DNA of 64,000 nt from contig MFIU01000002.1 in assembly GCA_001778985.1 (NCBI GenBank), forward strand, positions 57,826 through 121,825, written 5' to 3'. Of the stretch, positions 2,152 to 39,551 are shown in pieces (positions within the stretch are counted from its first letter, which is position 1; each line of letters begins with the position of its first letter). A program made the translations under genes and the position numbers. This stretch comes from Candidatus Giovannonibacteria bacterium RIFOXYD1_FULL_48_21. GTDB lineage: Bacteria > Patescibacteriota > Minisyncoccia > JACPKW01 > UBA11713. A model generated the notes under the pieces. That model had not been told where the DNA came from, did no database searches, and saw only the letters and a list, made by a program, of their open reading frames with translations.

Positions 2152-3108
2152 ATGCTCGATTTTTTAGTTTTCATTGTTTCGTTTTTTATTTTGAGCTGGG
2201 CCGGAGGAAGTTTGGTGAAGTCCCTGACTTCGCTCGCGCGGCTCTTGAAAGTTTCCGAGTACTTGATGGCATTTTTTCTGGTAAGTTTCGCGACCTCGAT
2301 TCCGGAACTTTTCGTGGGCATCAGCTCGGCCTGGAAGGATATTCCGGCTTTTTCTCTGGGCAATGTTCTGGGCGCGAATATCATCAACGCGACCTTAATT
2401 TTAGGGCTGGTGGCGATTTTGGCGAACGGCATCAGCATCGAGCGGAAATTTTCCAGAAAAACTTTTCTGGCGGCTTTTGGCATGGGAATTCTGCCTTTAT
2501 TTTTCGCCTGGGACGGCGTTATCAGCCGTTTTGACGGCTTCCTGTCGCTCGCGGTATTTTTATTGTATCTGGTTTATATCTCCAGAGAGCGTGAATATTT
2601 TTCAGAAGTTTTTAATAACGCCTCCAGACTGCCCGCAGTTTTTATTAAAGATTTTTTTGCCGGCCTCGGCGCGTTCGTTTTGGCCCTGGCGGCTCTGCTT
2701 TTTAGCGCCTTCCTGCTGGTGAATACCGGCCAGAAAATAATCGGAATGTTTTCTATCTCGGCTTTCGTCTTCGGCGCTCTCTTGGTCGCGCTCGGCACCA
2801 CTTTGCCGGAGCTGATTTTCGGTCTCAAAGCCGTAAATCTGAAGCACGGCGCCATGGCTGTGGGAAATTCTTTGGGCTCAATCGTATTTAACGCTTCCTT
2901 TGTCGTAGGCGTTGTCAGCTTGATTCGGCCCATCGAAGTCGTCCGGGACGAAAATTTCATGCTCTCGGCCGCTTTCGTTTTCTTGGCTCTTCTCTTCTTT
3001 TCAGTTTTTACCTCCACCAAATCGCGCCTGGAGCGGGAGGAGGGAGTTTTTCTGGTGCTTCTATACCTGGTATTTTTCTTCAGCCAGTATTATCTTTTAA
3101 TCAAATGA
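2152..3108 (+). CDS. Ca2+/cation antiporter (CaCA family, YrbG-like)
   Basis: About 10 transmembrane helices. Two alpha-repeat motifs: GNVLGANIINATLILG and GNSLGSIVFNASFVVG. Confidence 0.75.
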   Translation: MLDFLVFIVSFFILSWAGGSLVKSLTSLARLLKVSEYLMAFFLVSFATSIPELFVGISSAWKDIPAFSLGNVLGANIINATLILGLVAILANGISIERKFSRKTFLAAFGMGILPLFFAWDGVISRFDGFLSLAVFLLYLVYISREREYFSEVFNNASRLPAVFIKDFFAGLGAFVLALAALLFSAFLLVNTGQKIIGMFSISAFVFGALLVALGTTLPELIFGLKAVNLKHGAMAVGNSLGSIVFNASFVVGVVSLIRPIEVVRDENFMLSAAFVFLALLFFSVFTSTKSRLEREEGVFLVLLYLVFFFSQYYLLIK

Positions 3109-4148
3109 CCACAGCGTTATTAATTCTGATCGGAGCGCTAATCGGAGGAATTGCGGCCTATTTTATTTTGTTGAGAAAACGCCCAGAGAGCGGCGAAGGG
3201 CTTTTAATGTTACAGAACCAGATGAATGAGCTAAAGAGAGAGCTCTCTGGGAAGCTAGACCTTAGTTTGGGACAATCAACGAACATTTTACAGAAGCAGC
3301 ATAGCGAATCGTTAAAAACCGCACGGGAACTAACCGAAAAACTTACAAAGCTGGATGAAACGAATAGACAAGTTGTTAATTTTGCAACGCAATTGGATAA
3401 ACTCCAGGACATCTTAAAAAATCCGAAGCAGAGGGGGGTATTCGGGGAATATTTTCTAGAAACGCTTTTAAAAAATGCATTCAACCCCAAAGATTACCAG
3501 ATGCAGTATAAGTTTAAAGATGGGGAGATAGTGGATGCGGTTTTATTTTTTGGAGACAAAATTATACCCATAGATTCGAAATTCTCGCTTGAGAATTATA
3601 ATAGGCTGGCCGAGGAATCGAATTCAGATTACCGTGCAGAACTCGAGGTCCAATTTAAAAATGATTTGAAAAAAAGGATCGATGAGACTTCCAAATATAT
3701 TCGCCCCATGGAAGGAACAACGGATTACGCATTTATGTTTATACCCGCAGAGGGCATTTACTATGACCTTTTGGTAAACAAGGTTGGTGCGGTTAAATCC
3801 AACACTCGCGATTTAATTGACTATGCTGTTAATGAGAAGAAAGTGCATATTGTCTCGCCAACCACATTTTATGTCACTCTGCAGGCAATGATTGTTGGTA
3901 TGCGCACATATCAGATTCAAGAATCAACAAAGGAAATATTGAAAAATATCGGCCAGTTAGAAAAGCATCTGCGTGCATTTGGAGAATATCATCTTAAAGT
4001 TGGCTCAAATTTAAATACGACCGTTAATTCGTATAACAGCGCATCTAAAGAGTTTACGAAAATTGATAAGGATATCGTGAAGTTAAATGGCGGGGGAATT
4101 GAGTTAGAATTGCCACTAATTAACAAATCCTTAACTGACGCCGATTGA
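3105..4148 (+). CDS. rmuC: DNA recombination protein RmuC
   Basis: N-terminal TM helix, coiled coil, and the conserved RmuC core GVFGEYFLETLLKNAF...DAVLFFGDKIIPIDSKFSLENY. Confidence 0.75.
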   Translation: MTTALLILIGALIGGIAAYFILLRKRPESGEGLLMLQNQMNELKRELSGKLDLSLGQSTNILQKQHSESLKTARELTEKLTKLDETNRQVVNFATQLDKLQDILKNPKQRGVFGEYFLETLLKNAFNPKDYQMQYKFKDGEIVDAVLFFGDKIIPIDSKFSLENYNRLAEESNSDYRAELEVQFKNDLKKRIDETSKYIRPMEGTTDYAFMFIPAEGIYYDLLVNKVGAVKSNTRDLIDYAVNEKKVHIVSPTTFYVTLQAMIVGMRTYQIQESTKEILKNIGQLEKHLRAFGEYHLKVGSNLNTTVNSYNSASKEFTKIDKDIVKLNGGGIELELPLINKSLTDAD

Positions 4149-4179: not shown

Positions 4180-4500
4180 ATGTCTAAATTCGCGGTAATC
4201 AAAACCGGCGGCAAGCAGTATTTGGTAGAGCCGGGGATGAAACTAAAAATCGAAAAACTCCCGCCGGGAAAAGACGAGACAATTGATTTTAATGAAGTCT
4301 TGCTCGTCGGAGAAGGGGAGAGTCTTGAGATTGGGAACCCTCTTGTAAGGAACGCGAAAGTCGCGGCCGAATGCATTCAAGAAGGCAAAGGTAAAAAAGT
4401 TATAGTGGCGCGCTACCACTCCAAAACCCGCTATTACAAGCGCCGCGGCCACCGCCAGCCCTTTACCGAGGTTTTGATAAAAGAGATAGTTGCGAAATAA
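4180..4500 (+). CDS. rplU: 50S ribosomal protein L21
   Basis: MSKFAVIKTGGKQYLVEPG is the L21 signature. 106 aa. Confidence 0.9.
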   Translation: MSKFAVIKTGGKQYLVEPGMKLKIEKLPPGKDETIDFNEVLLVGEGESLEIGNPLVRNAKVAAECIQEGKGKKVIVARYHSKTRYYKRRGHRQPFTEVLIKEIVAK

Positions 4501-4526
4501 AACTAGGTTTGCTAGAATGTGTTTGG

Positions 4527-4770
4527 CGTGGAAACGGTAGGGTCGCTAGGAAGCATTACGGGAGTTCGACTCTCTCGGCCGGTCCAAAAGTGAGGTCGGT
4601 TTGTGCAGGATAGGTGGGAGGCATTGAAGCGGAGGCGCTAGTTTCCAGGGAGCCAACCTTGAAATACCACCCTTGCCGATTGAACCCTCAGCCTCGGCCT
4701 TAAGCTCAAAACTGAGACTTGCGGATTCCATGCCTAACGCGGGGAGCGTCATCCGACCTCCCCGCGAAAT
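4527..4770 (+). ncRNA. 23S rRNA domain V-like fragment (H75-H79 / L1-stalk region), sense orientation, ending in a GC-rich hairpin
   Basis: Positions 4597-4672 read GGTCGGTTTGTGCAGGATAGGTGGGAGGCATTGAAG...GGAGCCAACCTTGAAATACCACCCTTG. They align at about 84% identity to E. coli 23S ~2105-2180 (GUGUAGGAUAGGUGGGAGGCUUUGAAG...GGAGCCGACCUUGAAAUACCACCCUU). The flanks show weaker H75/H79-like similarity. A hairpin GCGGGGAG..CTCCCCGC lies at 4739-4768. A possible TAGAAT -10 element is at 4512-4517. Confidence 0.5.
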
Positions 4771-4811
4771 TATTATAGTAACTCACGATCGTGACATATC
4801 ATAATCATTTC
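4768..4811. promoter_or_regulatory. Left copy of a duplicated operator/promoter module (palindrome TCACGATCGTGA + TATAAT-like box)
   Basis: Direct repeat, about 25/29 identical, with a copy at 5397-5440. Contains the perfect palindrome TCACGATCGTGA. On the minus strand the palindrome is followed by GTTAC-TATAAT. Confidence 0.45.
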
Positions 4812-4830
4812 ATTATATCTATTTCATTCG

Positions 4831-5388
4831 TCAGACTATATGGAAAGCTCGTTTAATTTTGTAATCATTGTCCAAGCTGGCCTCGGCGTATATCACAAAG
4901 GATTTTAAATTAAAGAAATGAATAACAAATTCAATCTCTTTTTTGCAATCGTACGGCCAAAGGAAAACGCTTTTTTGTAATTCGTAACATCCCAGCTCTT
5001 TTAACTTTCTTCTTAGGGCATCCCGGCTGCGTCTTTTAATTTCAGGGATATCAAAAAGTATCAGACGCCACTTACCATCCCAACGGCCCTGAACCGGAAG
5101 TTCCAGCTCAGAAAAATCTAATTTTTTAAGATACTCCCTACCCCTCGGCGTAATAAAAATTCTAACTTCATTCTTTGAAACTTGTTTATGTTCAATAAAA
5201 CCTCGTTTCTTAAGAGAACGAGAGAGGCGATAGATATGTTCGCGCTCTAGTTTTCGCCACTCTTTTGGCACAGATTTTAAAAGGCGGAAGTAGTGCCGGG
5301 GAGTAGGTGAGAGTCCTAAGGATACGCCCAGGGCCAACAACCAAAGAAATCTCTTCACCCAAATGTTTTTCGGCATCCGAATTTTCAT
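4831..5388 (-). CDS. PaaX-family transcriptional regulator (short form: wHTH + PaaX C-terminal Cas2-like domain)
   Basis: WDGKWRLILFDIPEIKRRSRDALRRKLKELGCYELQKSVFLWPY matches the PaaX core WDGxWxLxxYxIPExxRxxRDxLRRxLxxLGFGxLxxSVWISP. N-terminal winged-helix segment. Confidence 0.6.
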   Translation of the reverse strand: MKIRMPKNIWVKRFLWLLALGVSLGLSPTPRHYFRLLKSVPKEWRKLEREHIYRLSRSLKKRGFIEHKQVSKNEVRIFITPRGREYLKKLDFSELELPVQGRWDGKWRLILFDIPEIKRRSRDALRRKLKELGCYELQKSVFLWPYDCKKEIEFVIHFFNLKSFVIYAEASLDNDYKIKRAFHIV

Positions 5389-5396
5389 ATTTTTAA

Positions 5397-5440
5397 AAGA
5401 TTATATTACCTCACGATCGTATCATATAATAATCTTTTTT
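5397..5440. promoter_or_regulatory. Right copy of the operator/promoter module, immediately upstream of the paaX-like start
   Basis: Minus-strand reading is ACGATCGTGAGG-TAATATAAT-11nt-ATG. This fits an autoregulated promoter with a short or absent leader. Confidence 0.5.
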
Positions 5441-5451
5441 AGTAACCTTAA

Positions 5452-6060
5452 TTATTTTCTGTTTTCTAGGGCGTGCTTTAGGGTATCACGGTCGGAGTAT
5501 TCGAGTTCCGTGCCGGTGGAGAGGCCGCGGGCGAGATTCGTGATTTTTATTTTGCGTTTTTTGGCGAACCCTTCCAGCAGTTCTTCAATGAAGCGACGAG
5601 TCATGTCGCCCTCGGTGGTGGCCGAGAGTGCGAGAATCACCTCTTTAATCTCGTCGGAAATCTCCAGTTTGGTTTTGAGCTCTTTTAGACGGAGTTTTTC
5701 TTTTTTTTCGGGCTTCAGGGGGGAGAGTAGTCCGCCCAAGACGAAATATTTCCCTTCATAGATTTGGTTTTTCTCGAGATTTTCCAAGTCCGCGTCTTTT
5801 TCCACCACCAGCAATTTGGAATCATCCCGAGAGGAACTCTGGCAAATGCCGCAGAGGGTGGATTTTCCTGAAAAAATTCGGAAGCACTTGCCGCAGCGCG
5901 AAACTTCTTCGTTTAATTTTGAAATAAGCTCGGCGAAATCTTTAAGAAATTTCCGGTCTTCTTCCACCAAGGCGTAGACAAATCTCCGGGCTTGCCTGGG
6001 GCCAATCCCGGGCAAGCGCTCAAAATATTCCACCAGTTTGTGAATTATCGACTCGGACAT
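5452..6060 (-). CDS. recR: Recombination protein RecR
   Basis: HhH motif LPGIGPRQARR, C4 zinc finger CGKC...CGIC, and Toprim domain. Confidence 0.9.
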   Translation of the reverse strand: MSESIIHKLVEYFERLPGIGPRQARRFVYALVEEDRKFLKDFAELISKLNEEVSRCGKCFRIFSGKSTLCGICQSSSRDDSKLLVVEKDADLENLEKNQIYEGKYFVLGGLLSPLKPEKKEKLRLKELKTKLEISDEIKEVILALSATTEGDMTRRFIEELLEGFAKKRKIKITNLARGLSTGTELEYSDRDTLKHALENRK

Positions 6061-6064
6061 CGGT

Positions 6065-7447
6065 TTATTCTACCGCGAAATTTTCAAAACCGGCGCTTTC
6101 ATCCAGAGAAGTGAAAGTAACTTTGTCGGGGTTGAAATACAGGCTTACTTTGCCCAAGGGGCCGTTTCGGTGTTTGGCCACCATGATGTCCGCTTGGTTC
6201 GGCCTGGGAGAATTTTCTCGATAACGGTCTTCGCGATGGATTAAGAGCACGACATCCGCGTCTTGCTCGATTGAGCCGGATTCTCTCAAGTCCGAAAGCC
6301 GGGGGATGGGGGGGTGCCGAGATTCGACGGCGCGGGAAAGCTGGGAGACCGCCAAGACCGGCACGTTTAATTCGCGCGCCAAGGCCTTAAGGGAGCGGGA
6401 GATTTCGGTAATCTGTTGGACCATGCTCTCGGACGGGGTTCGCGGCTGCATCAGCTGAAGATAATCTATGACCAAAAGTCCCAAGTTGCCGTGGTCGGCC
6501 TGCAGGCGCCGCGCCATGGCCCGCATTTGTAAAATATTGTTTGAAGCCTCGTCATCGATATAGAGAGGCGCCTTGGAGAGATGGTCGAGCGCGTCCCGAA
6601 TTCTGGCAAAGTCATCAGAATTTTCCGCGAGTCGGCCGGTCCGCAGTTTCCATAGGTCCACATGGGCCTCGGAGGCGATGAAGCGGTCAACCAGCTGCTG
6701 GGTAGACATTTCTAGAGAAAATATTCCCACCGGAATATTTTTATGAATCGAAACGTGTCTGGCGATGTCCAGAGCCAGGGCGGTTTTTCCGAAAGAAGGC
6801 CTGGCGGCCAGAATAACGAGGTCTGATTTTTGCAGTCCGGCTAAAATATTATCGAGTTCTTTGAATCCGGTGGAAACTCCCCGCAGTTCGCCTTTATTTT
6901 TGTGTAGGTTGTCGATTCGCTCCCAAGCTTCTTCCAGGGCCTGACCCAGAGGCGTGAACTTTTGATGGAGCGAGCGCTGCGAGATAGAAAAAACTTTTTT
7001 CTCAGCTTCGTCCAAAAGAGAATCAATATCCTCGGATTCGCGGTAGCCCAGCTCCGCCAGGTCGCCCGAGACCTGAATCAAATCGCGAAGTACCCGTTTT
7101 TTTCTGACCAGCTCTGCATAGTGCTGGACGTTGGAGGCCGTGGGCACGGAATTGACGAGATCCGTTAAGTAGGCCACGCCGCCTATCTGCTCCAGGATAT
7201 TTTTTTCACCCAGCCTTGAAGAAATAGAAAGCATATCGATCGGTTCTCGGCGGTCAAAGAGGTCCAGAATCGCGGAAAAAATTGTCTGGTGCGCCGGACG
7301 ATAGAAATCCTCCGGCCGGATTATGTCGGCGACTTTATAAATCGCGCTGCCGTCCAGCAAAAGAGCCCCCAGAGTTGAAATTTCCGCTTCAACGTTTTGC
7401 GGCGGAATCCGGATGGTGCTGCCCAGGGGCGACTCAATATTGGCCAT
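6065..7447 (-). CDS. dnaB: Replicative DNA helicase DnaB
   Basis: N-terminal DnaB domain. Walker A ARPSFGKTALAL. RecA-like C-terminal domain. Confidence 0.9.
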   Translation of the reverse strand: MANIESPLGSTIRIPPQNVEAEISTLGALLLDGSAIYKVADIIRPEDFYRPAHQTIFSAILDLFDRREPIDMLSISSRLGEKNILEQIGGVAYLTDLVNSVPTASNVQHYAELVRKKRVLRDLIQVSGDLAELGYRESEDIDSLLDEAEKKVFSISQRSLHQKFTPLGQALEEAWERIDNLHKNKGELRGVSTGFKELDNILAGLQKSDLVILAARPSFGKTALALDIARHVSIHKNIPVGIFSLEMSTQQLVDRFIASEAHVDLWKLRTGRLAENSDDFARIRDALDHLSKAPLYIDDEASNNILQMRAMARRLQADHGNLGLLVIDYLQLMQPRTPSESMVQQITEISRSLKALARELNVPVLAVSQLSRAVESRHPPIPRLSDLRESGSIEQDADVVLLIHREDRYRENSPRPNQADIMVAKHRNGPLGKVSLYFNPDKVTFTSLDESAGFENFAVE

Positions 7448-30874: not shown

Positions 30875-30951
30875 TGGTGGACCCGAGCGGCTTCGAACCG
30901 CTAACCTCCCGAGTGCAAATCGGGTGCTCTAGCCAATTGAGCTACGGGCCC
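30875..30951 (-). tRNA. tRNA-Ala (anticodon TGC), CCA encoded
   Basis: Reverse complement is GGGCCCGTAGCTCAATTGGCTAGAGCACCCGATTTGCACTCGGGAGGTTAGCGGTTCGAAGCCGCTCGGGTCCACCA. G3:U70 identity pair. Anticodon loop TTTGCAC. Confidence 0.75.
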
Positions 30952-30975
30952 CGTTAGAAAATCATCTAACCAGTT
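30949..30975. repeat. Hairpin element B: CCCCGTTAGAAAA with a degenerate partner (tcatCTAACcag), overlapping the tRNA-Ala 5' end
   Basis: Left arm is intact; right arm is degenerate. Confidence 0.4.
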
Positions 30976-31394
30976 TACTGGACGATTATTTTTCCGCGGA
31001 GCGTTGGATTCAGATGGTCGTGCATGGGACACTCTTTCTTTTCGTTGAAAGTGAAAGAGTAGCTCTCGCCTGGCTCCACCGCTTCTAAGGAGTCAAAGCC
31101 CGGGCAGAGCTGATGAGCAGGGTGAACCCCTGATGCCGGCCGATGATTTTTAGTGTCTTTGTTCACGAATTTGACCGTATCCCCTGCTTTTATAGTTACT
31201 TCGGCAGGAGAAAATCCAGAAGCGCTCATCTCTATTACCGTTTCGCTCGCCCCGGACGAAGGAGCTGGCGCTGGCGTTGGGAGCGGCCTCGGGGGCGGTA
31301 TAATAGTCGAGGCGGCTTGATACTGCGCGGAGTAAAAATACCATCCTAATCCCGCCAAAATTAAAACAACTACGATTAGACCTAAAATTTTCAC
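30975..31394 (-). CDS. Secreted cupredoxin-like (blue-copper-fold) protein with non-canonical ligand set
   Basis: N-terminal TM or signal and a Pro-rich linker. C-terminal YSFTF..ECPMHDH...GKIIV resembles a cupredoxin C-terminal loop (C-x2-H). Confidence 0.4.
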   Translation of the reverse strand: MKILGLIVVVLILAGLGWYFYSAQYQAASTIIPPPRPLPTPAPAPSSGASETVIEMSASGFSPAEVTIKAGDTVKFVNKDTKNHRPASGVHPAHQLCPGFDSLEAVEPGESYSFTFNEKKECPMHDHLNPTLRGKIIVQ

Positions 31395-31502
31395 CCCGTT
31401 AGAAATTTAACCAATAAACTTTTCCCATGATCAAGAAAGCCAAAGGAGAGTTCGCTCTCGAAAAATATTCCAATAACAATCTTCGCTGAATTTCTAACGG
31501 GG
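31394..31502. repeat. Hairpin element C: CCCCGTTAGAAAT ... (82-nt loop) ... AATTTCTAACGGGG
   Basis: 13-bp perfect stem with an approximately 82-nt loop of unique sequence. Lies between two minus-strand genes. Confidence 0.65.
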
Positions 31503-31503
31503 T

Positions 31504-32226
31504 TCATATCAATAATGTTACCACGCTCATAATAAAGTTTCCAGCCAGGAGGCCCAGAATTAAAGGGTCTTGTTCAAAGAAAACAGAAATCAAGATAGTC
31601 GCCAGAGCCACCACTATTCCATAGATAATTTTATTGCGCCTTCCCGAAAAATTGGAGCTGACGTGTTCTATCAGCATCACGCTCGTGAAAAATAATAAAG
31701 TTCCGTCAAGAATTTTTGATATGCCGAAAAATAGGCCGTAAGGAATCAGAAAAGAGAGCGCTGTTTCCCAGCGCCGGAGATACCAGACAATATAAAGCCC
31801 GAGCGCGAGCAAAATGAAGAGCACTACCCCGCCAGACGCGAGCGACGGGGCCCACCAGGAAACCGCGCTAAACCCTCCTAAACTCGCCACTGCCAGAGCG
31901 GAGGCGGCCGGATTGAAAATATGCCGCCGCGGCCCGATTCTGACAAGCTGTTTTAGGGCCACGGCGATAAGCGGCAGTAAAATAATTAATTTCCATGAGG
32001 GGTTTGGCGGGCCGACGAGCGCCACGATAAAGCCGGAAATTACAGAGGCCAAAGGGAAATACCAAGCGCCGTCCCGAAAATAAGTCCATAAAACGTCGAA
32101 GAGTGCGTACAAGGAGGCGAGCAAAATTCCATTCAAGAGATAGGTCCACTCCCCCGCTTCGAAAGCTCCCCAGGCGAGAAGCGCTCCGAGGTAGACAAAC
32201 ATGAAATAGTAGATGCTGATTCTCAT
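31504..32226 (-). CDS. Integral membrane protein (about 7 TM), function unknown
   Basis: Hydrophobic throughout. HIFNPAA motif. No confident family. Confidence 0.4.
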   Translation of the reverse strand: MRISIYYFMFVYLGALLAWGAFEAGEWTYLLNGILLASLYALFDVLWTYFRDGAWYFPLASVISGFIVALVGPPNPSWKLIILLPLIAVALKQLVRIGPRRHIFNPAASALAVASLGGFSAVSWWAPSLASGGVVLFILLALGLYIVWYLRRWETALSFLIPYGLFFGISKILDGTLLFFTSVMLIEHVSSNFSGRRNKIIYGIVVALATILISVFFEQDPLILGLLAGNFIMSVVTLLI

Positions 32227-33200
32227 GTTTTCCCGAGCGCCAGAGTCGCGAGATGGTCCAAAAGTTTCGGAAACGAAAGCCCAATCGCCTCTGACGCTTT
32301 CGGAAAAAGCGATTCGGATGTTAATCCTGGCAAAGTATTGGTTTCCAGAATAAAAACGCCGCTCCGTCCTCTGGCGGAAGAGACGATAAAATCCGAACGC
32401 GAATAATGCCTCAAGCCCAGACTTTGGTGCGCCAAAACCGCCATCTCTTGAATTTTTCCGGAAATTTCTTTTTCAAAGCGGGCCGGACAGATTTCTTTAG
32501 TCTCGCCGTTGTATTTAACTTCGTAATCAAAGAATCTTTCGGCCGGCGGAATTATCTCCACTACCGGCAAAGCGTAATATTTTTTTCCTCGGAAATTTTC
32601 CAAAACGCCGCAGGTGGCTTCCCTACCCTTGACGTATTCTTCCGCGAGGGCCTTGTCGCTGTACACAAACGCTTCGCTAAGCGCCCCGATAAGTTCCGGA
32701 ATATTTTGAGCGATGCTTACCCCAACCGAAGAACCGCGGTCCGCGGGCTTGACGACCCACGGAGAGAAAAACGCTTCTCGAACTTCCAGCGCTTTTTCGC
32801 CGAGATTATCTTTTTTTCCGAGAGCCATCCCTCTTGGAATTTTAAGCCCGGCTTTTTGGAAAATTTCCCGAGCCAGAGTTTTTCGCATGGCGAGCGCCGA
32901 AGCCACAACGCCCGAGCCGGTGTACGGAATAGAATGCGTCTCCAAAAATTGTTGGACCTTCCCATCCTCGCCGTATTCGCCGTGCAGGGCGTTAAAAATC
33001 AAATCCAACTTTCTGAAAATTTTTTCAGGACTCAAGGGAAAGCCGTTAAAGTGCCAAACTCCGTCCCGCGACAGGAGAATATCATGCGTTTGATATTTAT
33101 CAGGCGGCAGATATTTCAAAACGTTCTCGCCGGTCAAAAGCGAGATTTCGTATTCCGCGCTGGGCCCTCCCCTTAGAACCCCGACCCTGATTTTAGCCAT
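32223..33200 (-). CDS. ddl: D-alanine--D-alanine ligase
   Basis: ATP-grasp fold. N-terminal MAKIRVGVLRGGPSAEYEISL. C-terminal ETNTLPGLT. Confidence 0.9.
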   Translation of the reverse strand: MAKIRVGVLRGGPSAEYEISLLTGENVLKYLPPDKYQTHDILLSRDGVWHFNGFPLSPEKIFRKLDLIFNALHGEYGEDGKVQQFLETHSIPYTGSGVVASALAMRKTLAREIFQKAGLKIPRGMALGKKDNLGEKALEVREAFFSPWVVKPADRGSSVGVSIAQNIPELIGALSEAFVYSDKALAEEYVKGREATCGVLENFRGKKYYALPVVEIIPPAERFFDYEVKYNGETKEICPARFEKEISGKIQEMAVLAHQSLGLRHYSRSDFIVSSARGRSGVFILETNTLPGLTSESLFPKASEAIGLSFPKLLDHLATLALGKT

Positions 33201-33279
33201 CTTTCTATTTTAAAACGAAATGTGGAAAACTGCATTTGACGGCGCTTGAAACCGGGCTTATCTTTAAAAAACAGTCCTT

Positions 33280-33495
33280 GAACAGCTAGATGCAGTTTGT
33301 AGATTACTAACGTAGGTTGGGGAAGCAGGTGTAAATCCTGCGCAGTGCCGCTACGGTGATTCGTTCTTCGAACGATAAGTCCGATGGCCAACCCTGCATT
33401 GTTTATCTTTTATCACCCTCGAGCAAGGGAAAGCCGTATTTTTAGCGTTTATCCATCTTCAAAACCCGCTCGAGGCGGGAATTTTTATTTTTTAA
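33280..33495 (+). promoter_or_regulatory. Cobalamin (AdoCbl) riboswitch with intrinsic terminator expression platform
   Basis: Core GGGAAGCAGGUGUAAAUCCUGCGCAGUGCCGCUACGGUGA matches the Cbl riboswitch consensus GGGAAgccGGUGaaAaUCCggCaCgGuCCCGCCACUGUaa. B12-box-like AAGUCCGAUGGCC (E. coli btuB has AAGCCCGAAGACC). Terminator CCCGCTCGAGGCGGG + AATTTTTATTTTTT at 33465-33493, just upstream of the 33509 start. Confidence 0.65.
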
Positions 33496-33508
33496 TAGTT
33501 TTAATAGC

Positions 33509-35092
33509 GTGAATAACATAAATAAAAAATTACTCCGGCTGTTTGTTCTTTTGTCGCTCGGCGCGCTGGCGTTCCTGCAGCTGAATTTAGCCCGGGGAGA
33601 CGTTAATTCCGCCTTGGTTTACCTCAAAACCAAAAGTCCGAATCCGTGGATAACTATGGCGCTGGTAGCCGCCGGAGAGAGTCCGGATGTTGATTATCTG
33701 AAATCGACTACCGGCGCCAGCGCCACCGATTACGAAGCCCCTATTTTGGCCTTGGCCGCAGCCGGAAAGAATGCACGGACATTTCCTGACACGGATTTGG
33801 TCGCGGCACTCAAGGCTTTTCACGCCGGAGGGCAAATCGGTAGCGCCTCAACTTTGAATGATGATATCTTCGGGGTTCTTGCTCTCCTTGCCTCTGGAGA
33901 ACCGGCGAGCGACTCGGCCGTAACGGATGCAAAAAACACCATCCTCAACAACCAGAATGCTAACGGCGGCTGGCCGTTTGCGGTAGGCGGCAATCCTGAC
34001 ACCAACATGACTGCGATGGCCATAATGGCCTTGATTTCGGCCGGAGTAGACAAAACTGATTCGCATATAGTAAACGCGGTTAATTACCTAAAATCGGCCC
34101 AGAATGACGACGGCGGGTTTCCTTATGATCCGGTAAGCCCGTGGGGAACAAACTCGGACGCGTCTTCGGATGCCTGGATTATCTCGGCGATAAGTAGCGT
34201 TGGTGAGGACCCGGATGGTTCAAGTTGGAGCAAAAACGGCAATAGCCCGGTTGACCATCTAATGTCTTTACAGGCCGATGGCGGATACTTTGAGTACCAA
34301 GAAGGCACGGGAGAGGATTCCTTTAGTCCAGTAACCACTTCTTACGCGGTAATTGCTTTAACGGGAAAGTATTATCCAGTGGGAGCAACTTCTTTTCCTG
34401 CAGTCCCGAATGTAGACTATAAAATCGAAGGAAGCACCGGGACGATTTGTGAAGGGAGCGTGAATGCTCCGAACGCGCTCAATTTAGTTGTGATTATCGC
34501 CCCAACTTGCGGCTTCACTTACGAGATAGTGGATACTTCTTTCGGGCCTTATCTGAAGAGAATAAACGACGATGAGGCGCACGACTTAGTCGGCTGGCTT
34601 TACGCGGTTAATTTCGTTCTGCCGAACATCGGTGCGGCCGACTATGACCTGGAAAACGGCGACTACGTTATCTGGCACTTCGGCAACTTTAACTGGCAGC
34701 CGGGCGGGGCCGAACTTAATTTGAGCGCCAATGTTCTCCCGGGAACGGGAGACGGAGGAGGAGGAGACGGCGGCTCCATATCTTTTACCGTTAACGTTTT
34801 GGGAGGAGGAAACAATTTGGGCTTTGGAGACATTGTTCCGGGAGCCCTGAAGTCGCAGGATATAGTGATTGTCAATAACGGTAATGGTTCTATCTACATA
34901 GAAAGCGCCGTAAGCGGAAATGAAGTATTCAGGGACTTCTTAAACATTGACGGGATTTCCTGGAGAAATTTCAGCCTTAACTTATCCGAGGGTGAAAGCG
35001 ACGAATCCGAAGTCAATCTGCAAGTGCCTTCTTCTTACTCCAAACCCGGTTCTAAAACTGGCAAGCTTATATTCTGGGCAACGGCAAACTAA
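33509..35092 (+). CDS. Secreted transcobalamin/intrinsic-factor-like protein: alpha/alpha-toroid repeats + DUF4430 (TC-like beta) domain + C-terminal beta-sandwich
   Basis: Signal peptide. Three QxxxGG(W/F/Y) toroid repeats (NQNANGGWPF, AQNDDGGFPY, LQADGGYFEY). DUF4430-like segment GWLYAVNFV...GAADYDLENGDYVIWHF. Gly-rich linker. Ig-like tail. Confidence 0.55.
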   Translation: MNNINKKLLRLFVLLSLGALAFLQLNLARGDVNSALVYLKTKSPNPWITMALVAAGESPDVDYLKSTTGASATDYEAPILALAAAGKNARTFPDTDLVAALKAFHAGGQIGSASTLNDDIFGVLALLASGEPASDSAVTDAKNTILNNQNANGGWPFAVGGNPDTNMTAMAIMALISAGVDKTDSHIVNAVNYLKSAQNDDGGFPYDPVSPWGTNSDASSDAWIISAISSVGEDPDGSSWSKNGNSPVDHLMSLQADGGYFEYQEGTGEDSFSPVTTSYAVIALTGKYYPVGATSFPAVPNVDYKIEGSTGTICEGSVNAPNALNLVVIIAPTCGFTYEIVDTSFGPYLKRINDDEAHDLVGWLYAVNFVLPNIGAADYDLENGDYVIWHFGNFNWQPGGAELNLSANVLPGTGDGGGGDGGSISFTVNVLGGGNNLGFGDIVPGALKSQDIVIVNNGNGSIYIESAVSGNEVFRDFLNIDGISWRNFSLNLSEGESDESEVNLQVPSSYSKPGSKTGKLIFWATAN

Positions 35093-35634
35093 TGAAGAAA
35101 CTGGGACTTATAACATTTTTAGGAATAATACTCGTCGCTTCCGCTCCGGCAGTGCCGGAGGCGGGGGCGGTGGGGCTTTCCGTTTATCCTAAGGAACTTC
35201 GAGTTTCGGCGATGGTGGGCGAGACAGCCAATTATAAGCTAAATGTTAAAAATCCTTCGGGAGAAGTTTCGCTTTTTGAGGTTTACCCGGATGACTTGGG
35301 AGCGATTGTAAAGGTTTCGCCGTCTAGTTTTATTCTGGAATCCGAAGAATCAAGAGAGGTGAGCGTGCGGGTTACGGCTCGCGGTGAGGGAGTGTTTAAA
35401 ACCAATATCTCGGTTGTCGCTACGCCGGTTGCCTCTGCGTCATTCAATGCCGGGAGCGGAGTGAAAATCCCCGTGGAGATTTCTGTCGGTCTGCCGAACT
35501 CGTGGCTCGCATCAATCATTGCCAGTTTGCCGCTTTCTACAACTAGTAGAACTTTAGGAGTGATTCTTTTGGGACTGATACTCATAGCCGGTTTTTTCGT
35601 AATAAGATATGGCGTCAAGCAAATTAAAATTTAG
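35092..35634 (+). CDS. Surface beta-sandwich (Ig-like) protein with C-terminal TM anchor
   Basis: Signal peptide, beta-rich domain, C-terminal hydrophobic helix followed by basic residues. Confidence 0.4.
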   Translation: MKKLGLITFLGIILVASAPAVPEAGAVGLSVYPKELRVSAMVGETANYKLNVKNPSGEVSLFEVYPDDLGAIVKVSPSSFILESEESREVSVRVTARGEGVFKTNISVVATPVASASFNAGSGVKIPVEISVGLPNSWLASIIASLPLSTTSRTLGVILLGLILIAGFFVIRYGVKQIKI

Positions 35635-36046
35635 TCTGATAGCGGTTGGTGTTTTGGCTCTGGCTCTCGCGGGCTTATCGTTTTTTGTAGACGGGCCGCA
35701 AGTCACTCAAGCGCCAGTACAAAGCGAACAAACCGTATCGCAAGCGTCTTTCGAAATAGATTTTGGCGACGGGAGGACAGAAGCGATTGAGATTGAAGTT
35801 GATGGAACAAAAAATCTATTCCAAGTTATGAAAGAGGTTTTGACCGAACAGGAAATTGAGTTCTCCTATGAAAGTTACTCCGGCTTGGGAGAGTTAATAA
35901 CTAAAATTGGGGACAAGAAGAACGGAGAGGGCGGCAATTACTGGCAGTTTTGGATAAACGGCAATTATTCCATGGTCGGCGCCTCTTCGTATATAGTAAA
36001 ACCCGCTGATATAATTGAATGGAAATTTACAGATGAACAGCAATAA
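35609..36046 (+). CDS. DUF4430 (transcobalamin-like beta domain) protein, membrane- or secretion-targeted
   Basis: GGNYWQFWINGNYSMVGASSYIVKPADIIEWKF matches the DUF4430 signature. N-terminal TM or signal. Confidence 0.6.
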   Translation: MASSKLKFSLIAVGVLALALAGLSFFVDGPQVTQAPVQSEQTVSQASFEIDFGDGRTEAIEIEVDGTKNLFQVMKEVLTEQEIEFSYESYSGLGELITKIGDKKNGEGGNYWQFWINGNYSMVGASSYIVKPADIIEWKFTDEQQ

Positions 36047-36581
36047 AGATAAATTTATTTTAGTTTTGATAGTTATTATTGCGGCGGTAAGTGTCATACT
36101 GCGCTTGCTGCCGCATATGCCGAACTTCGCGCCCATCGGCGCCTTGGCACTATTTGCTGGGCTGTACTCTACGCGTAAGTTGTGGTTTCTCATTCCTCTC
36201 GCGGTGATGTTCATAAGCGATATTTTCATAGGTTTTTATGACTGGCAGATTATGTCTGCTGTCTACTTGAGTTTTTTGGCTTATGCGGTGATTGGCAGAG
36301 TCGTCAAAAATAACAAGTCTGTTTTTACGGTCGCGGGCGGAACATTCGCCGGAGCGTTACTTTTTTATGTTACAACCAACTTCGCCGTTTGGGCTTTTTC
36401 GGGAATGTATCCTCATACACTCCAAGGGTTAATCTTATGCTACGAAATGGCGCTGCCATTCTTTAGAAATACTTTATTAGGGGACTTATTCTATGTGGGA
36501 GCGTTCGTTGGCGCTTACGAATTGGCTTATAAACTTTTAGCTTCACAAATGCGCTTAGCCTTGAAGGCTCAAATTAATTAA
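36015..36581 (+). CDS. Six-TM small membrane protein, putative ECF-S-component-like / BtuM-CbrT-like transporter
   Basis: About 185 aa and 6 predicted TM helices. Last gene of the riboswitch-led cluster. The ATG at 36033 is a possible true start. Confidence 0.35.
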   Translation: MNGNLQMNSNKDKFILVLIVIIAAVSVILRLLPHMPNFAPIGALALFAGLYSTRKLWFLIPLAVMFISDIFIGFYDWQIMSAVYLSFLAYAVIGRVVKNNKSVFTVAGGTFAGALLFYVTTNFAVWAFSGMYPHTLQGLILCYEMALPFFRNTLLGDLFYVGAFVGAYELAYKLLASQMRLALKAQIN

Positions 36582-36602
36582 CCCACACTCTTAGGCGTTT
36601 GA

Positions 36603-37349
36603 ATGGAAAAAATACAAAAAGCTATATTTTGTTGGAGTGGAGGGAAAGACTCTTCGTATTGCTTGTACAAAGTTTTAACGGAAAAATTATTCGATGTGAA
36701 GTATCTGCTTACTACCATCAATGGTAAATTTAAAAGAATTTCAATGCACGGAGTGAGGGAAGAATTATTAGATAATCAAGCCGAATCAATCGGCATTCCG
36801 CTCTTGAAAGTAAGAGTAACCGAAGGCACAAATGACGAGTACGAAAAACAAATGGAAACAGTTTTGCTAAAAGTAAAATCGGAAGGAATCAACAATGTAA
36901 TCTTTGGTGATATCTTTTTGGAAGGTTTAAGAATATACCGTGAAAATAATTTAGCAAAGGTGGGAATGAAAGGAATTTTTCCAATATGGAAAGTAAGCAC
37001 AACAAATCTCTTAAATGATTTTATCAACCGACAATTCAACGCTGTGATATGTTGCGCCAATGACGGATATCTTGGAGAAGAATGGATAGGAAGGGAAATA
37101 GACAAATCATTTATAGAACAATTACCTGCTACTGTCGATCCTTGCGGAGAAAACGGAGAGTACCACACGTTTTGTTATGATGGACCTCTGTTCAAAAAGA
37201 AAATCAGTTTTACGGTGGGTGAAAAAGTTTATAGAGCACTGGAAATAAAAACAGACGATGTTTGCACTCTGCCATTAAATGTGACAACAAAGGGATTTTG
37301 GTTTTGCGATTTATTATCTAAACCGACCAGTGGACGAGGGAGGATTTGA
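36603..37349 (+). CDS. PP-loop ATP pyrophosphatase, Dph6/MJ0570 (DUF71) family
   Basis: CWSGGKDS PP-loop and the GENGEYHTF motif typical of the diphthine-ammonia ligase-like family. Confidence 0.7.
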   Translation: MEKIQKAIFCWSGGKDSSYCLYKVLTEKLFDVKYLLTTINGKFKRISMHGVREELLDNQAESIGIPLLKVRVTEGTNDEYEKQMETVLLKVKSEGINNVIFGDIFLEGLRIYRENNLAKVGMKGIFPIWKVSTTNLLNDFINRQFNAVICCANDGYLGEEWIGREIDKSFIEQLPATVDPCGENGEYHTFCYDGPLFKKKISFTVGEKVYRALEIKTDDVCTLPLNVTTKGFWFCDLLSKPTSGRGRI

Positions 37350-37405
37350 ACCTCCGACCCCGTCATTATCAGTGACGTGCTCTAACCAGGCTGAGCTACT
37401 CGTCC
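37331..37405 (-). tRNA. tRNA-Ile (anticodon GAT)
   Basis: Reverse complement is GGACGAGTAGCTCAGCCTGGTTAGAGCACGTCACTGATAATGACGGGGTCGGAGGTTCAAATCCTCCCTCGTCCA. Anticodon loop CTGATAA. Lies 3' of the 16S, as in rrn spacers. Confidence 0.7.
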
Positions 37406-37450
37406 AATAGAAAAAGCACCTCTGCAAAAGTTACTTTTTAAAAAACGGCG

Positions 37451-37633
37451 TTATTTGTTTTTCGCGGCGAAATCTTTCGAAACCACTCGCCAGGCCTCGT
37501 GCGGCCCGGAGGGAGCCTTGGTGACGGCGAAAAACCGGCCGCTCTTCTCCCGGATGGTATACTCGCTGGCCATGAACGGCTGTCTGGTTTTCACATCCAG
37601 AAATTTCAATTCTTCCTTGTCGCCTTTTGGCAT
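37451..37633 (-). CDS. Small ORF (60 aa) within the 16S-tRNA-Ile spacer
   Basis: ORF only. No ribosome-binding site. Confidence 0.2.
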   Translation of the reverse strand: MPKGDKEELKFLDVKTRQPFMASEYTIREKSGRFFAVTKAPSGPHEAWRVVSKDFAAKNK

Positions 37634-37766
37634 AGTTTAAAAATTCTTTATATGCCCTGCCTGCTGGCAGGCAGATTCGACCTTCTTTATAAGTTTAAGC
37701 TAAATTCTCTCTTTTGTCCCGTTCAGCCGAGATTTTAGCCTGCCTGCCGGCAGGCAGGGCTCCTCG

Positions 37767-37830
37767 CCCCGTTAGAAATCCGAAAACCTTCGAATTCCTC
37801 TCAGGGCTCGCCCCGTGATTTCTAACGGGG
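37767..37830. repeat. Hairpin element D: CCCCGTTAGAAAT ... (38-nt loop) ... ATTTCTAACGGGG in the 16S 3' spacer
   Basis: 13-bp stem. The loop contains a partial extra copy (CTCGCCCCGTGA). The CTGCCTG-CYGG-CAGGCAG hairpins at 37655-37675 and 37740-37760 lie upstream, not adjacent. Confidence 0.65.
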
Positions 37831-37883
37831 CTCGGCCAACACCTTAATCAATCAAGTTTCGACCTAGACTTATAGTCTTAAAT

Positions 37884-39375
<1,492 letters not shown>

Positions 39376-39551
39376 GAATTTGAACGGGACAAAAGAGAAA
39401 ATTTCTTTTGTTTATTGTGTGTTCTAGATTTTTAATGTTCTGGCAAAATAAACCCGCGATGAGCTTCGCCTAAAAACCCATCGCGGATTTACTTCTTAAT
39501 TTTCAAGTTGTTTAAGCTGTCGTATACCTCATATTAATCCGCCCTACCTAC

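Follow-up and report, generated by a model that had tools for sequence, protein, structure and literature searches.

A wHTH-Cas2-like gene at the recR/rplU junction

The analysis covered 64,000 nt of contig MFIU01000002.1 (GCA_001778985.1) from Candidatus Giovannonibacteria bacterium RIFOXYD1_FULL_48_21, an ultra-small groundwater organism; this whole stretch is referred to as the window. Its minus strand carries, at positions 4831 to 5388, a gene for a protein of 185 amino acids, which was characterized by means of Pfam, an AlphaFold2 model, Foldseek, and alignment. The upstream side of the gene is flanked by recR (5452 to 6060, minus strand; Pfam RecR domains, synteny) and the downstream side by the convergent rplU gene for ribosomal protein L21 (4180 to 4500, plus strand; Pfam Ribosomal_L21p 3.5e-33, synteny), both of which are treated as context only. 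With dnaB and rmuC, these genes are the neighbors in the window, and no paa catabolic genes are found nearby. A GC-rich hairpin, GCGGGGAG...CTCCCCGC (4739 to 4765, plus strand), adjoins the downstream palindrome described below and is a neighbor outside the cassette, namely, the terminator-like 3' end of a plus-strand structured RNA/rplU 3' region. A T-run follows this hairpin in relatives, and its G-U pairs in L015 are kept on the plus strand only; a three-sequence alignment of the neighboring structured RNA was too gapped to inform. The Rfam search gave no match to the palindromes, its sole match being the 23S-like sequence next door.

In its N-terminal half, the protein has a winged helix-turn-helix (wHTH) domain (approximately residues 9 to 80), followed in the C-terminal half by a ferredoxin domain of the Cas2-like type (approximately residues 104 to 181) with an invariant FDIPE/QKS motif; the AlphaFold2 monomer model (pLDDT 78) displays both the wHTH and the ferredoxin domain. 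Pfam assigned residues 101 to 172 to PaaX_M (PF20803; 3.7e-21) and also reported Cas2 (9.6e-4). The top match of Foldseek among solved structures was PaaX of E. coli W (8a39; 147 aligned columns, E 4e-4), with Cas2 structures from rank 2 down. The NCBIfam model for cas2 (TIGR01573) scored 25 bits at a cutoff of 24.5, covering residues 107 to 142 only, and D113 within FDIPE, which corresponds to the Asp in the catalytic motif of Cas2, does not vary across the family alignment. A previous interpretation of the same DNA, hereafter the sequence-only reading, had assigned the gene to the PaaX family. This assignment holds with respect to the wHTH and PaaX_M; it does not hold for the NCBIfam PaaX equivalog (TIGR02277/COG3327), which was failed with 24 bits versus a cutoff of 264.55, or for PaaX_C, to which the protein has no Pfam match, and the family consensus likewise stops at about 185 amino acids. 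The protein is a winged-helix/Cas2-like fusion that resembles the first two domains of PaaX and is no true PaaX. The existing annotation is thereby corrected, as the protein belongs neither with the CRISPR proteins nor with the regulators of phenylacetate genes. In public databases it is annotated as "CRISPR-associated endonuclease Cas2," a label that is misleading because of the wHTH fusion and because no cas1 gene is found among the annotated neighbors.

Two matching palindromes enclose the gene

A repeat search revealed a direct repeat of 44 nt on both sides of the gene (4767 to 4810 and 5395 to 5438), with 36 of 44 positions being identical (82%). Each copy represents an imperfect palindrome of about 46 bp centered on ACGATCGT, in which the arms are 79% complementary for the left copy (4766 to 4789 with 4788 to 4811) and 76% complementary for the right copy (5395 to 5419 with 5414 to 5438). 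The upstream palindrome, putative operator 1 (5395 to 5438), lies between the recR stop at 5452 and the gene start at 5388, with its center between 5416 and 5417 and the perfect 8-mer palindrome ACGATCGT (5413 to 5420) as its core. The downstream palindrome, putative operator 2 (4766 to 4811), starts 20 nt past the stop codon, with its center between 4788 and 4789 and the perfect 12-mer palindrome TCACGATCGTGA (4783 to 4794) as its core. The center-to-center distance is 628 bp, the median in the family being 634 bp (range 596 to 762 bp). The sequence-only reading had described both copies and their palindromic nature correctly, its coordinates being right within 1 to 2 nt, and the high identity of the repeat core was borne out, the recount giving 24/29 rather than 25/29. 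It was right about the repeat but not about a solely direct orientation: because each copy is a palindrome, the copies are as much inverted as direct repeats, and across the family the direct alignment was better in 26 loci and the inverted one in 21, i.e., there is no preference.

A degenerate 28-nt pattern fitting both copies has two matches in the window and none in 100 shuffles, and the 11-mer CTCACGATCGT occurs in the 64 kb at these two sites only. A search of the 64-kb window for a regulon yielded no further sites, and no copies of the palindrome were found there beyond the two flanking the gene. The sequence was invariant across 10 contigs of the same species, and the comparison was therefore not informative. 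Both palindromes are among the least perfect ones of the family, with asymmetric positions 5 to 8 and 11 to 12.

The upstream palindrome overlaps a conserved -10 box

In both copies, a TATAAT motif on the minus strand begins 11 nt from the palindrome center. In putative operator 1, this -10 box (5400 to 5405, minus strand) is located within the gene-proximal arm and ends 11 nt from the ATG (5388 to 5386), exactly the spacing given by the sequence-only reading; therefore, the mRNA is predicted to be leaderless or nearly so. The proposal that the right copy serves as the promoter of the gene was corroborated: in 5/5 orthologues, a perfect TATAAT is found within reach of the palindrome, which it overlaps, at +8 or +11 from the upstream center, and the ATG follows after another 5 to 12 nt. 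The overlap of the upstream palindrome with a conserved -10 box would imply autorepression.

Orthologues and empty sites

The unit is present at the recR/rplU junction in the window and in four related loci (L011, L012, L015, and L017), and all five orthologues possess homologous palindromes both upstream and downstream. Where the window has ACGATCGT in both copies, the orthologues, which share 57 to 65% identity, have GCTATAGC in both copies, while the distal TGATTA/TAATCA arms are kept. This covariation supports the view that both copies may act as sites for one coevolving factor. In two syntenic relatives (L099 and L101), the recR/rplU junction lacks the gene and both palindromes, and in two others (L100 and L102), it is occupied by other genes. 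The comparison with empty sites proposed earlier thus revealed related genomes without the gene and without both palindromes, and no duplication was left behind. All 24 contigs encoding this exact protein share one context.

A metagenome scan with the window-type operator returned 34 stretches, which were mostly unrelated. One of them (L117, identical to L137; Ca. Tyrphobacter sp.) contains a seemingly genuine solo site that matches the downstream copy of the window at 36/44 positions in a hand alignment; an open reading frame (ORF) of 117 amino acids ends 36 nt before this site, and the start codon of uvrB follows about 110 nt after it. The window itself has no uvrB.

Family-wide pairing of gene and palindromes

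The palindrome-gene-palindrome arrangement is found throughout the family in Patescibacteria. The family comprises approximately 4,000 clusters at 50% identity (E<=1e-10), with several copies per tiny genome, and 85 loci were examined out of these several thousand sequence clusters. Palindromes were found upstream in 64/85 and downstream in 71/85 loci. At 75 of 84 loci, the repeat shared by the upstream and downstream flanks surpasses the 95th percentile of the controls from mismatched loci; at 70 of these 84, it exceeds the control maximum. The identity between copies amounts to 33.2/44 within a locus versus 18.7/44 between loci. Sites of this kind are largely confined to the flanks of the gene: four comparable sites were detected outside the gene flanks in 427 kb, scanning 818 kb for foreign consensus sites gave 0 matches, and scanning 57 loci for sites of their own type gave a single extra one beyond the flanks. 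The downstream palindrome lies at a median of 31 nt past the stop codon, and the pair encloses one gene only. At one locus (L077), palindromes of this type also enclose a neighboring gene, which was judged by eye to be pilin-like on account of the N-terminal motif. Apart from the recR/rplU/rmuC junction in 6 to 8 loci, clustering and reading of translations by eye disclosed no functional theme among the family neighbors. As far as the translations could be read by eye, the neighbors resemble diverse housekeeping genes.

The palindromes combine a common center with private arms. Among 120 palindromes found without a core requirement, 107 have the center C[GT][AG][TC][AC]G. The family thus shares its center, in the form of CGATCG, CTATAG, or CTATCG, whereas the arms are specific for each gene. 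Both center types were seen within single loci (L071, L088, and L098). Positions 1 to 4 and 9 to 17 stand out by high symmetry and high identity between the copies, both of which dip at positions 5 to 8 and end at position 21; beyond ±21 nt, copy-to-copy identity is at background (approximately 0.3). This constraint profile suits protein contacts more than a plain stem.

The protein displays a similar division, with a mean pairwise identity of 54% for the Cas2-like half and 37% for the wHTH half, so that the conserved domain parallels the conserved center. In comparisons between close relatives, the arms are more alike where the HTH domains are more alike (partial r 0.42, reached in 0 of 2,000 permutations); when the orthologue group of the window is excluded, the correlation for close pairs is not significant (Spearman 0.14), and a global Mantel test of wHTH versus arms was null. 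In the same-genome paralogues L036 and L043, the Cas2 halves are 92% identical, helix 2 is 47% identical, and the arms have diverged.

An autoregulated cassette as the favored interpretation

Taken at face value, the arrangement looks like a self-contained, self-regulating cassette, and the literature searched yielded no description of the wHTH-Cas2-like family or of a palindrome-gene-palindrome architecture. We assign a probability of roughly 0.55 to the interpretation that the unit is autoregulated, with the palindromes as putative operators for the encoded dimer. Specifically, the 185-residue product would dimerize by means of the conserved Cas2-like domain, in the manner of PaaX and Cas2, and the dimer would bind double-stranded DNA at each palindrome of about 42 bp, placing the Cas2-like core over the family-wide center, which reads RC(G/T)A-T(C/A)GY with the symmetry axis in its middle, while the two variable winged-helix domains would read the gene-specific arms approximately 9 to 20 bp on either side. 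As the upstream arm constitutes the -10 box of the presumably leaderless promoter, binding is proposed to repress transcription of the gene itself. The downstream palindrome may be a second operator for the same protein that has, in addition, the character of a weak bidirectional terminator (hairpin, A/T tracts). Both sites together might insulate the gene from its neighbors, and their bridging into a repression loop of about 630 bp is conceivable. In favor of this interpretation are the family-wide pairing of gene and palindromes, the common center with private arms, the covariation of both copies, the constraint profile, the position of the -10 box, the resemblance to PaaX in architecture and operator geometry, the parallel between conserved domain and conserved center, the agreement of arm and HTH identity among close relatives, the bracketed gene in L077, and the terminator-like features detailed below. 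Against it stand the null global test of wHTH versus arms, the dependence of the close-pair correlation on the orthologue group of the window, and the imperfect palindromes of the window, whose RNA hairpins are weak and which a terminator scan did not list. Moreover, no cellular output is obvious for a protein with sites around its own gene only, so that the model must be missing something. Gene conversion between two nearby hairpins would be another way to keep the copies alike.

According to an unlikely alternative, the palindromes are bidirectional intrinsic terminators that act as RNA hairpins, insulate the gene, and are kept alike by gene conversion, the protein being nonbinding or RNA-binding. 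The Cas2 fold is indeed an RNA-binding/RNase fold, which is counted in favor of this view. T-tracts (at least 5 of 8) are present on each side in 56 to 67% of the sites versus 25% at control positions, the median hairpin free energies in the family range from -16 to -18 kcal/mol, and G:T mismatches outnumber A:C mismatches in the downstream copies (57 versus 26, composition predicting a ratio of 1.22). In addition, solo palindromes occur after genes or at convergent junctions, as in L117 and, between convergent ORFs, in L116 and L127. However, a terminator needs no particular loop, yet the center hexamer is common to nearly all sites (the 107/120 given above); its two sides need not match each other, yet the arms agree within each locus and vary from one locus to the next; and the weakest constraint is seen at positions 5 to 8, although a stem would depend on them. 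These genomes also contain ordinary terminators that are GC-rich (L100 and L102, and 4739 to 4765 in the window). The hairpins of the window are weak, with -9.3 and -11.1 kcal/mol and short T-runs as read from the sequence, and neither palindrome was listed in a terminator scan of the window. Moreover, with the -10 box at its 3' edge, the upstream hairpin lies outside the gene's own mRNA.

Quite unlikely, in our estimation, is a mobile or selfish cassette whose ends are the palindromes and whose Cas2-like nuclease/wHTH protein recognizes them and cuts or synapses them at the conserved center. It would account for the presence or absence of the whole unit at a conserved junction, for the several paralogues per genome that are scattered among unrelated housekeeping genes, for the fact that the sites flank essentially the protein's own gene only, and for the invariance of the catalytic-motif residue D113; inverted arms around a fixed center also formally resemble recombination sites. 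The sequence-only reading had likewise considered att-like ends of a small inserted cassette. This was half right: syntenic relatives lack the unit as a whole, but att ends or a target-site duplication were rejected, since the similarity stops sharply at ±21 nt with no extension of the repeat, and the empty sites keep no copy of the palindrome. No recombinase or transposase is present near the unit, the wHTH-Cas2-like gene being its sole gene. Signs of recent mobility are likewise missing: the 24 contigs show one context, near-identical copies in different contexts were not seen (the closest paralogue pair is 77% identical), and a single relative was found in 2.9 million viral contigs. The divergence of the orthologues (57 to 65% identity) matches that of the flanking housekeeping genes (61 to 65%), and the genomes that carry the unit form a paraphyletic group, as would be expected from ancient vertical inheritance accompanied by losses. 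We regard it as similarly improbable that the units form an unrecognized class of autonomous Patescibacteria cassette in which the Cas2-like nuclease, with the wHTH setting its specificity, recognizes its own two palindromes by their private arms and universal CGATCG/CTATAG center and acts on them enzymatically (cutting, synapsis, excision, or copying), or a one-protein addiction/defense module; the "operators" would then be the ends or targets of a selfish element.

Very unlikely is the proposal of the sequence-only reading that the downstream copy is a second regulated promoter, from which a minus-strand transcript would cross the GC hairpin and be antisense both to the 3' end of rplU and to the 23S-like RNA. 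The left copy in the window has a perfect minus-strand TATAAT, a consensus scan lists ATGTCA-17-AATAAT at this copy (9/12 matches), and the palindrome would put it under control of the same protein. However, this -10 box is perfect in the window only, the other four orthologues having shifted 5/6 variants or none within the arms, whereas the upstream box is perfect in all five. The same bias is evident throughout the family, with 47 -10-like boxes at 20 to 40 nt from the center for the upstream copy in sense orientation versus 24, 20, and 17 for the other combinations of copy and strand. L012 keeps the downstream palindrome though the structured RNA is absent, and the palindrome is also kept at 19/57 loci with other convergent neighbors. 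The 68-amino-acid ORF on the minus strand at this position is antisense to rRNA-like sequence and has no Pfam match in the public annotation. The -10 box is conserved in the upstream copy only, and the data do not support a second promoter for an antisense RNA; the left copy resembles a -10 box because the putative operator arm happens to read TATAAT in the lineage of the window. Finally, although the arms are AT-rich and short two-copy repeats commonly arise by chance, chance similarity in AT-rich intergenic DNA is ruled out for practical purposes by the shuffles (0 matches in 100 for the shared 28-mer pattern), by the family-wide recurrence relative to controls, and by the covariation among orthologues.

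Significance and comparison with known systems

The Patescibacteria (CPR) represent a large share of bacterial diversity, and gene regulation in them is almost uncharted. The present data define a putative promoter/operator architecture for organisms that are mostly beyond culture and concern a family that is routinely misannotated as "Cas2" or "PaaX." The matched palindrome pairs constitute a ready set of candidate protein/DNA specificity pairs, which might be exploited for deriving a recognition code or as orthogonal repressor/operator parts. It is puzzling that the main target of each of these putative regulators seems to be its own gene. Should the downstream site loop or form a protein-reinforced terminator, it would represent a compact type of insulation without a described precedent in model bacteria.

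Several known systems share individual features with the unit. Integron attC sites have conserved ends (R''/R' GTTRRRY) and a variable center, which is the opposite of the conserved center and variable arms of the palindromes described here, in which GTTRRRY ends were not seen. Bidirectional intrinsic terminators similarly consist of an A-tract, a hairpin, and a T-tract just past stop codons; the palindromes differ from them by long AT-rich stems, a conserved center, matched sides, and relaxed positions 5 to 8. The flanking of a gene on both sides by lineage-specific palindromic repeats is reminiscent of REP elements around RAYT (TnpA-REP) genes. REPs, however, occur as tens to hundreds of scattered copies, and the RAYT protein is an HUH Y1 transposase, whereas here two copies are found per gene and essentially none elsewhere (two in 64 kb), and the protein has no transposase fold. 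With Cas2 and VapD-type Cas2-like toxins, the protein shares the ferredoxin-like fold and the Asp at the end of strand 1, and within Cas1-Cas2 complexes the Cas2 dimer is aligned with the DNA duplex. In contrast to Cas2, it is fused to a wHTH domain and has no cas1 among its annotated neighbors.

PaaX is the phenylacetyl-CoA-responsive repressor of paa genes in E. coli and Pseudomonas, with a full length of about 300 amino acids. Both PaaX and the 185-residue protein possess an N-terminal winged helix followed by a Cas2-like dimerization domain, and the autoregulation known for PaaX is proposed likewise for the wHTH-Cas2-like gene. To our knowledge, the motifs FDIPE and QKSVF, which the wHTH-Cas2-like protein keeps, are absent from E. 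coli PaaX. The E. coli PaaX operator is TGATTC(N27)GAATCA, approximately 40 bp with two distal inverted half-sites (PMC9493321). In sequence, the palindromes of the window's orthologue group resemble this operator, having TGATTA/GATTAT and TAATCA/ATAATC 24 to 26 bp apart. The differences concern the protein, which is missing the effector domain PaaX_C (185 amino acids versus 305 residues in the 8a39 chain), the palindrome with its conserved 8-bp center and a second, downstream site as the rule, and the genomic setting, with several paralogues per genome that each have private arms and no paa genes nearby.

Repressors known to loop DNA between paired operators include lambda CI at OL/OR, LacI, GalR, and DeoR, and in the case of lambda, the gene of the repressor itself lies between both operator regions. 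The unit resembles these systems in having two putative operators of the same type a few hundred base pairs apart (628 bp in the window); we know of no oligomerization beyond the dimer for the wHTH-Cas2-like protein. It is distinguished from them by the position of the second site right after the stop codon, such that the pair encloses a single gene.

Locus organization and the palindrome pair

The 185-residue protein is encoded on the minus strand at 4831-5388, between palindromes at 4766-4811 and 5395-5438. On the rplU side, rmuC (3105-4148) and rplU (4180-4500), both on the plus strand, are followed on that strand by a structured RNA region, partly 23S-like, that ends in a GC hairpin at 4739-4765; on the other side lie recR (5452-6060) and dnaB (6065-7447), both on the minus strand. 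Two Candidatus Giovannonibacteria assemblies (GCA_003510385.1 and GCA_001778975.1), as well as many metagenome contigs, contain an identical protein in identical gene order.

A repeat search of the window aligned 4767-4810 with 5395-5438 as a 44-nt repeat of 82% identity, each copy alone being an imperfect palindrome of ~46 bp. A 28-nt pattern fitting both copies matched twice in the window and never in 100 shuffles; the core 11-mer had no further occurrence in the 64 kb, and a whole-window scan with the locus's own consensus site returned the two copies and no third place. The repeat described in the sequence-only reading thus exists, but it is not a direct one, since each copy is palindromic and the pair is one symmetric site present twice. 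The window also has other short zero-loop palindromes, for instance GCGGTTAAACCGCCAAGTGGCGGTTTAACCGC, centred at 54803, and those at 53606, 53022, 37748, and 2030; their sequences are unrelated to those flanking the gene.

The protein and its family

Pfam assigned only the PaaX central Cas2-like domain (PF20803, 3.7e-21) and a weak Cas2 match to the protein, and the NCBIfam cas2 score was 25 bits (cut-off, 24.5). The AlphaFold2 model (pLDDT 78) features an N-terminal winged helix, composed of helices 9-26, 30-44, and 49-61 and a β-hairpin at 65-79, and a C-terminal ferredoxin-like domain (107-181). By sequence, the N-terminal half resembles winged helices of the MarR/PadR/AspA type. The top match among solved structures was E. 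coli W PaaX (8a39), which spans both domains, followed by many Cas2 proteins. The protein is a fusion of a winged helix-turn-helix (wHTH) and a Cas2-like domain, corresponding to the two N-terminal domains of PaaX.

The family comprises 4,020 clusters (50% identity, E ≤ 1e-10), or 1,051 at 1e-30, with at least 576 matches in GTDB species genomes, several per genome. Almost all of the 80 retrieved family loci are labeled Patescibacteria or CPR lineages, and 2.9 million viral contigs yielded one relative only. Paralogues in one genome (e.g., the pairs L036/L043, L073/L091, and L022/L036 of the retrieved loci) share 53 to 77% identity, more than with the rest of the family; this closeness points to putative lineage-specific expansions.

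Family-wide pairing of gene and palindromes

Orthologues with 57 to 65% identity occupy the same place and orientation in five further loci (dnaB-recR-gene, convergent with rplU-rmuC), every one with a palindrome upstream and downstream. The centre is GCTATAGC in both copies in the orthologues and ACGATCGT in both copies in the window; the distal arms, (A)ATGATTA...TAATC(A/T)TT, are kept in the orthologues. As unconstrained intergenic DNA would be randomized at such divergence, the two copies have been kept matched while drifting from the orthologous sites, the pattern expected of one co-evolving recognition factor.

Upstream and downstream flanks of each gene were compared for 80 more distant loci (33 to 44% identity) and the orthologues, with the upstream flank of one locus paired with the downstream flank of another as control. 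The repeat common to both flanks exceeded the control 95th percentile in 75 of 84 loci and the control maximum in 70. The shared element is the palindrome, centred at a median of 46 nt 5′ of the start codon and 31 nt 3′ of the stop codon, with a family median of 634 bp from centre to centre. Among 120 palindromes, detected without any sequence requirement, 107 carry the centre hexamer C[GT][AG][TC][AC]G (CGATCG, 57; CTATAG, 26; CTATCG, 11). The arms hold almost no family-wide information (0.1 to 0.6 bit) and match at 33.2 of 44 positions within a locus versus 18.7 of 44 between loci. Family-type sites numbered 135 in the gene flanks versus 4, two of them convincing, in 427 kb of surrounding DNA, and a scan with foreign consensus sites gave no matches in 818 kb. 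The finding in the window is real and is one instance of a family-wide architecture, more general than could be known from this locus; our literature search found no description of it.

The best-supported mechanism is autorepression, in which a PaaX-like long operator would overlap the gene's own promoter and its duplicate downstream of the gene would serve as a second operator that also insulates. That the protein binds these sites, that a loop forms, and that the Cas2-like domain has any enzymatic activity are inferences.

Promoter and terminator-like features

A perfect TATAAT overlaps the upstream copy in all five orthologues, offset from the centre by +8 or +11 and followed 5 to 12 nt on by the in-frame ATG, which bears out the proposal that this copy sits on the gene's promoter. 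The spacing implies leaderless or nearly leaderless mRNAs, with the predicted operator lying over the -10 box. Across the family, -10-like hexamers 20 to 40 nt 3′ of the centre numbered 47 for the upstream copy in sense orientation versus 24, 20, and 17 for the other combinations of copy and strand. The downstream copy had been proposed as a second promoter, driving an antisense RNA. That proposal fares poorly: among the orthologues, the perfect TATAAT in this copy is confined to the window, and the family-wide enrichment is confined to the upstream/sense combination. The -10 box there is probably a by-product of the arm sequence in the window's lineage and not a conserved feature. For the window locus alone a second promoter is conceivable, a consensus scan listing the downstream copy as a 9/12 promoter-like match.

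Several features of the palindromes are terminator-like. Borders of family sites are rich in A on the 5′ side and in T on the 3′ side, and T-tracts (at least 5 of 8) lie past the hairpin on each strand at 56 to 67% of sites versus 25% of control positions. Folded as RNA, the hairpins have a family median of -16 to -18 kcal/mol; on the sense strand of downstream copies, 57 G:T versus 26 A:C mismatches were counted, where composition predicts 1.22:1. The window's own hairpins are weak (-9.3 and -11.1 kcal/mol), and a terminator scan of the window called neither copy. Termination alone does not explain the loop sequence common to the family or the match between the gene's two sides. In our reading, the terminator-like features would serve secondarily to insulate the unit, on top of a putative protein-binding site.

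History of the unit

Related Giovannonibacteria keep cysS-dnaB-recR convergent with rplU-rmuC and have neither the gene nor its palindromes. At this junction, recR and rplU abut with zero intergenic bases in one locus (L099), whereas others hold a 94-nt spacer with no palindrome (L101), a HAD hydrolase gene (L100), or an ORF for a hydrophobic protein of 124 residues (L102); together with the window group, these mark the convergent recR/rplU junction as a hot spot at which genes have been gained and lost in a single candidate lineage. In a neighbour-joining tree of RecR, L21, and RmuC (681 columns, computed without support values), the window is the earliest ingroup branch and the empty-site genomes are nested among unit-bearing ones. 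The divergence of the regulator (57 to 65%) equals that of the flanking housekeeping proteins (61 to 65%). The simplest history would be an old resident unit, cleanly lost in some lineages. This history, the single genomic context of the protein, and the lack of any detected repeat extension or duplication beyond the palindromes argue against recent mobility; with empty sites free of palindromes as well, the suggestion of att-like cassette ends or a target-site duplication can be set aside.

Sites beyond the standard pair

The usual number of sites per unit is two; additional copies lie upstream in L049 and L055. Locus L077 (2860-4220) carries four palindromes of its own type, centred at about 2887, 3574, 3649, and 4192. 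Between the last two, on the opposite strand, lies an adjacent gene that is type IV pilin-like by eye from its N-terminal motif. As this gene lies outside the family, bracketing may be the family protein's way with a target gene.

When metagenomes were scanned for the window-type operator, one solo site was convincing, at 1700-1845 of L117, a contig identical to L137 (GCA_035532135.1, Ca. Tyrphobacter sp.). By hand alignment, its palindrome is identical to the window's downstream copy at 36 of 44 positions; it lies 36 nt past a small ORF encoding 117 residues. The uvrB start codon is about 110 nt downstream of the site, and inspection by eye showed a good promoter, TTGCTT-17-TATAAT, in the interval. 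In L058, a family gene directly precedes uvrB and another palindrome lies 3′ of it. The solo site may be a rare trans target or a remnant. On metagenome contigs L116 (2135) and L127 (2457), good palindromes with AT-rich arms and a CGATCG centre lie alone where ORFs converge, and the retrieved stretches of 6 to 14 kb showed no family gene; a paralogue encoded elsewhere could use them as trans sites, or they could reflect a general terminator style. Similar palindromes occur in L120, L121, and L128. Apart from the recR/rplU/rmuC junction, unit neighbours look like unrelated housekeeping genes in translations read by eye, and trans targets seem rare.

Neighbouring RNA features

Plus-strand sequence 4520-4765, adjoining the downstream palindrome, is a structured RNA or rplU 3′ region whose multi-branch fold (-102.8 kcal/mol, z = -2.1) is closed by a long-range helix of GGCGUGGAA with UUCCAUGCC and has a terminator hairpin at its end. 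Within the fold, 88 nt (4594-4681) mimic the 23S L1 stalk almost perfectly (Rfam LSU positions 2127-2214, 57.8 bits), and the loop of a hairpin at 4560-4576 resembles a tRNA T-loop; beyond the rRNA piece, the region matched no Rfam family. The scaffold is kept in L015, where the 23S-like insert is lacking, and in L016 to L018, which have that insert, an extra one, and GGCGGG/CCGCCC in place of GGUGGG/CCACCC; neither L012 nor the empty sites have the scaffold. An ORF encoding 68 residues on the minus strand (4546-4752), called as a gene in public assemblies (e.g., L001, 6637-6843), is antisense to the rRNA-like RNA, has no Pfam match on record, and is probably a spurious call.

Elsewhere in the window, an rRNA operon on the minus strand (30875-39376) is apparently broken up: the 16S gene (37883-39376) and tRNA-Ile (37330-37405) lie about 6.4 kb from tRNA-Ala (30875-30951), an AdoCbl riboswitch (33295-33436) occupies the opposite strand between the two tRNAs, and no 23S gene is present in the 64 kb.

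Proposed site recognition and comparison with PaaX

Within-site symmetry and copy-to-copy identity follow one common profile with distance from the centre, very high at positions 1 to 4, lower at 5 to 8 (0.67 to 0.75), high at 9 to 17 (0.81 to 0.87), and at background after 21. A stem would need positions 5 to 8 equally; for a dimer in contact with the centre and a distal half-site on each side, they would not be needed. The copies show no orientation preference (direct, 26 loci; inverted, 21), which is what a symmetric dimer bound to duplex DNA would give.

The Cas2-like half is more conserved than the wHTH half (54 versus 37% mean pairwise identity), in parallel with the sites, where the centre is conserved and the arms vary. 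A global test for covariation between wHTH and arms was null; among close relatives, arm identity correlated with identity of the HTH helices 30-62 (partial r = 0.42, 0/2000 permutations, rest of the protein controlled), a signal that comes mostly from one orthologue group. In paralogues L036/L043 and L073/L091, the Cas2 half is 90 to 92% and helix 2 40 to 47% identical, and the arms have diverged. Palindrome arms of same-genome paralogues are mostly near background identity, with the exception of L031/L040, which have arms in common and differ in their centres (CGATCG versus CTATAG).

The E. coli PaaX operator is TGATTC(N27)GAATCA (PMC9493321). The arms in the window's orthologue group, TGATTA/GATTAT...TAATCA/ATAATC, are spaced 24 to 26 bp and resemble this geometry. 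The label of PaaX-family regulator holds as a structural analogy but not as family membership: unlike PaaX, the window protein has no effector domain and no accompanying paa genes, and its NCBIfam PaaX score is 24 bits against a cut-off of 264.55.
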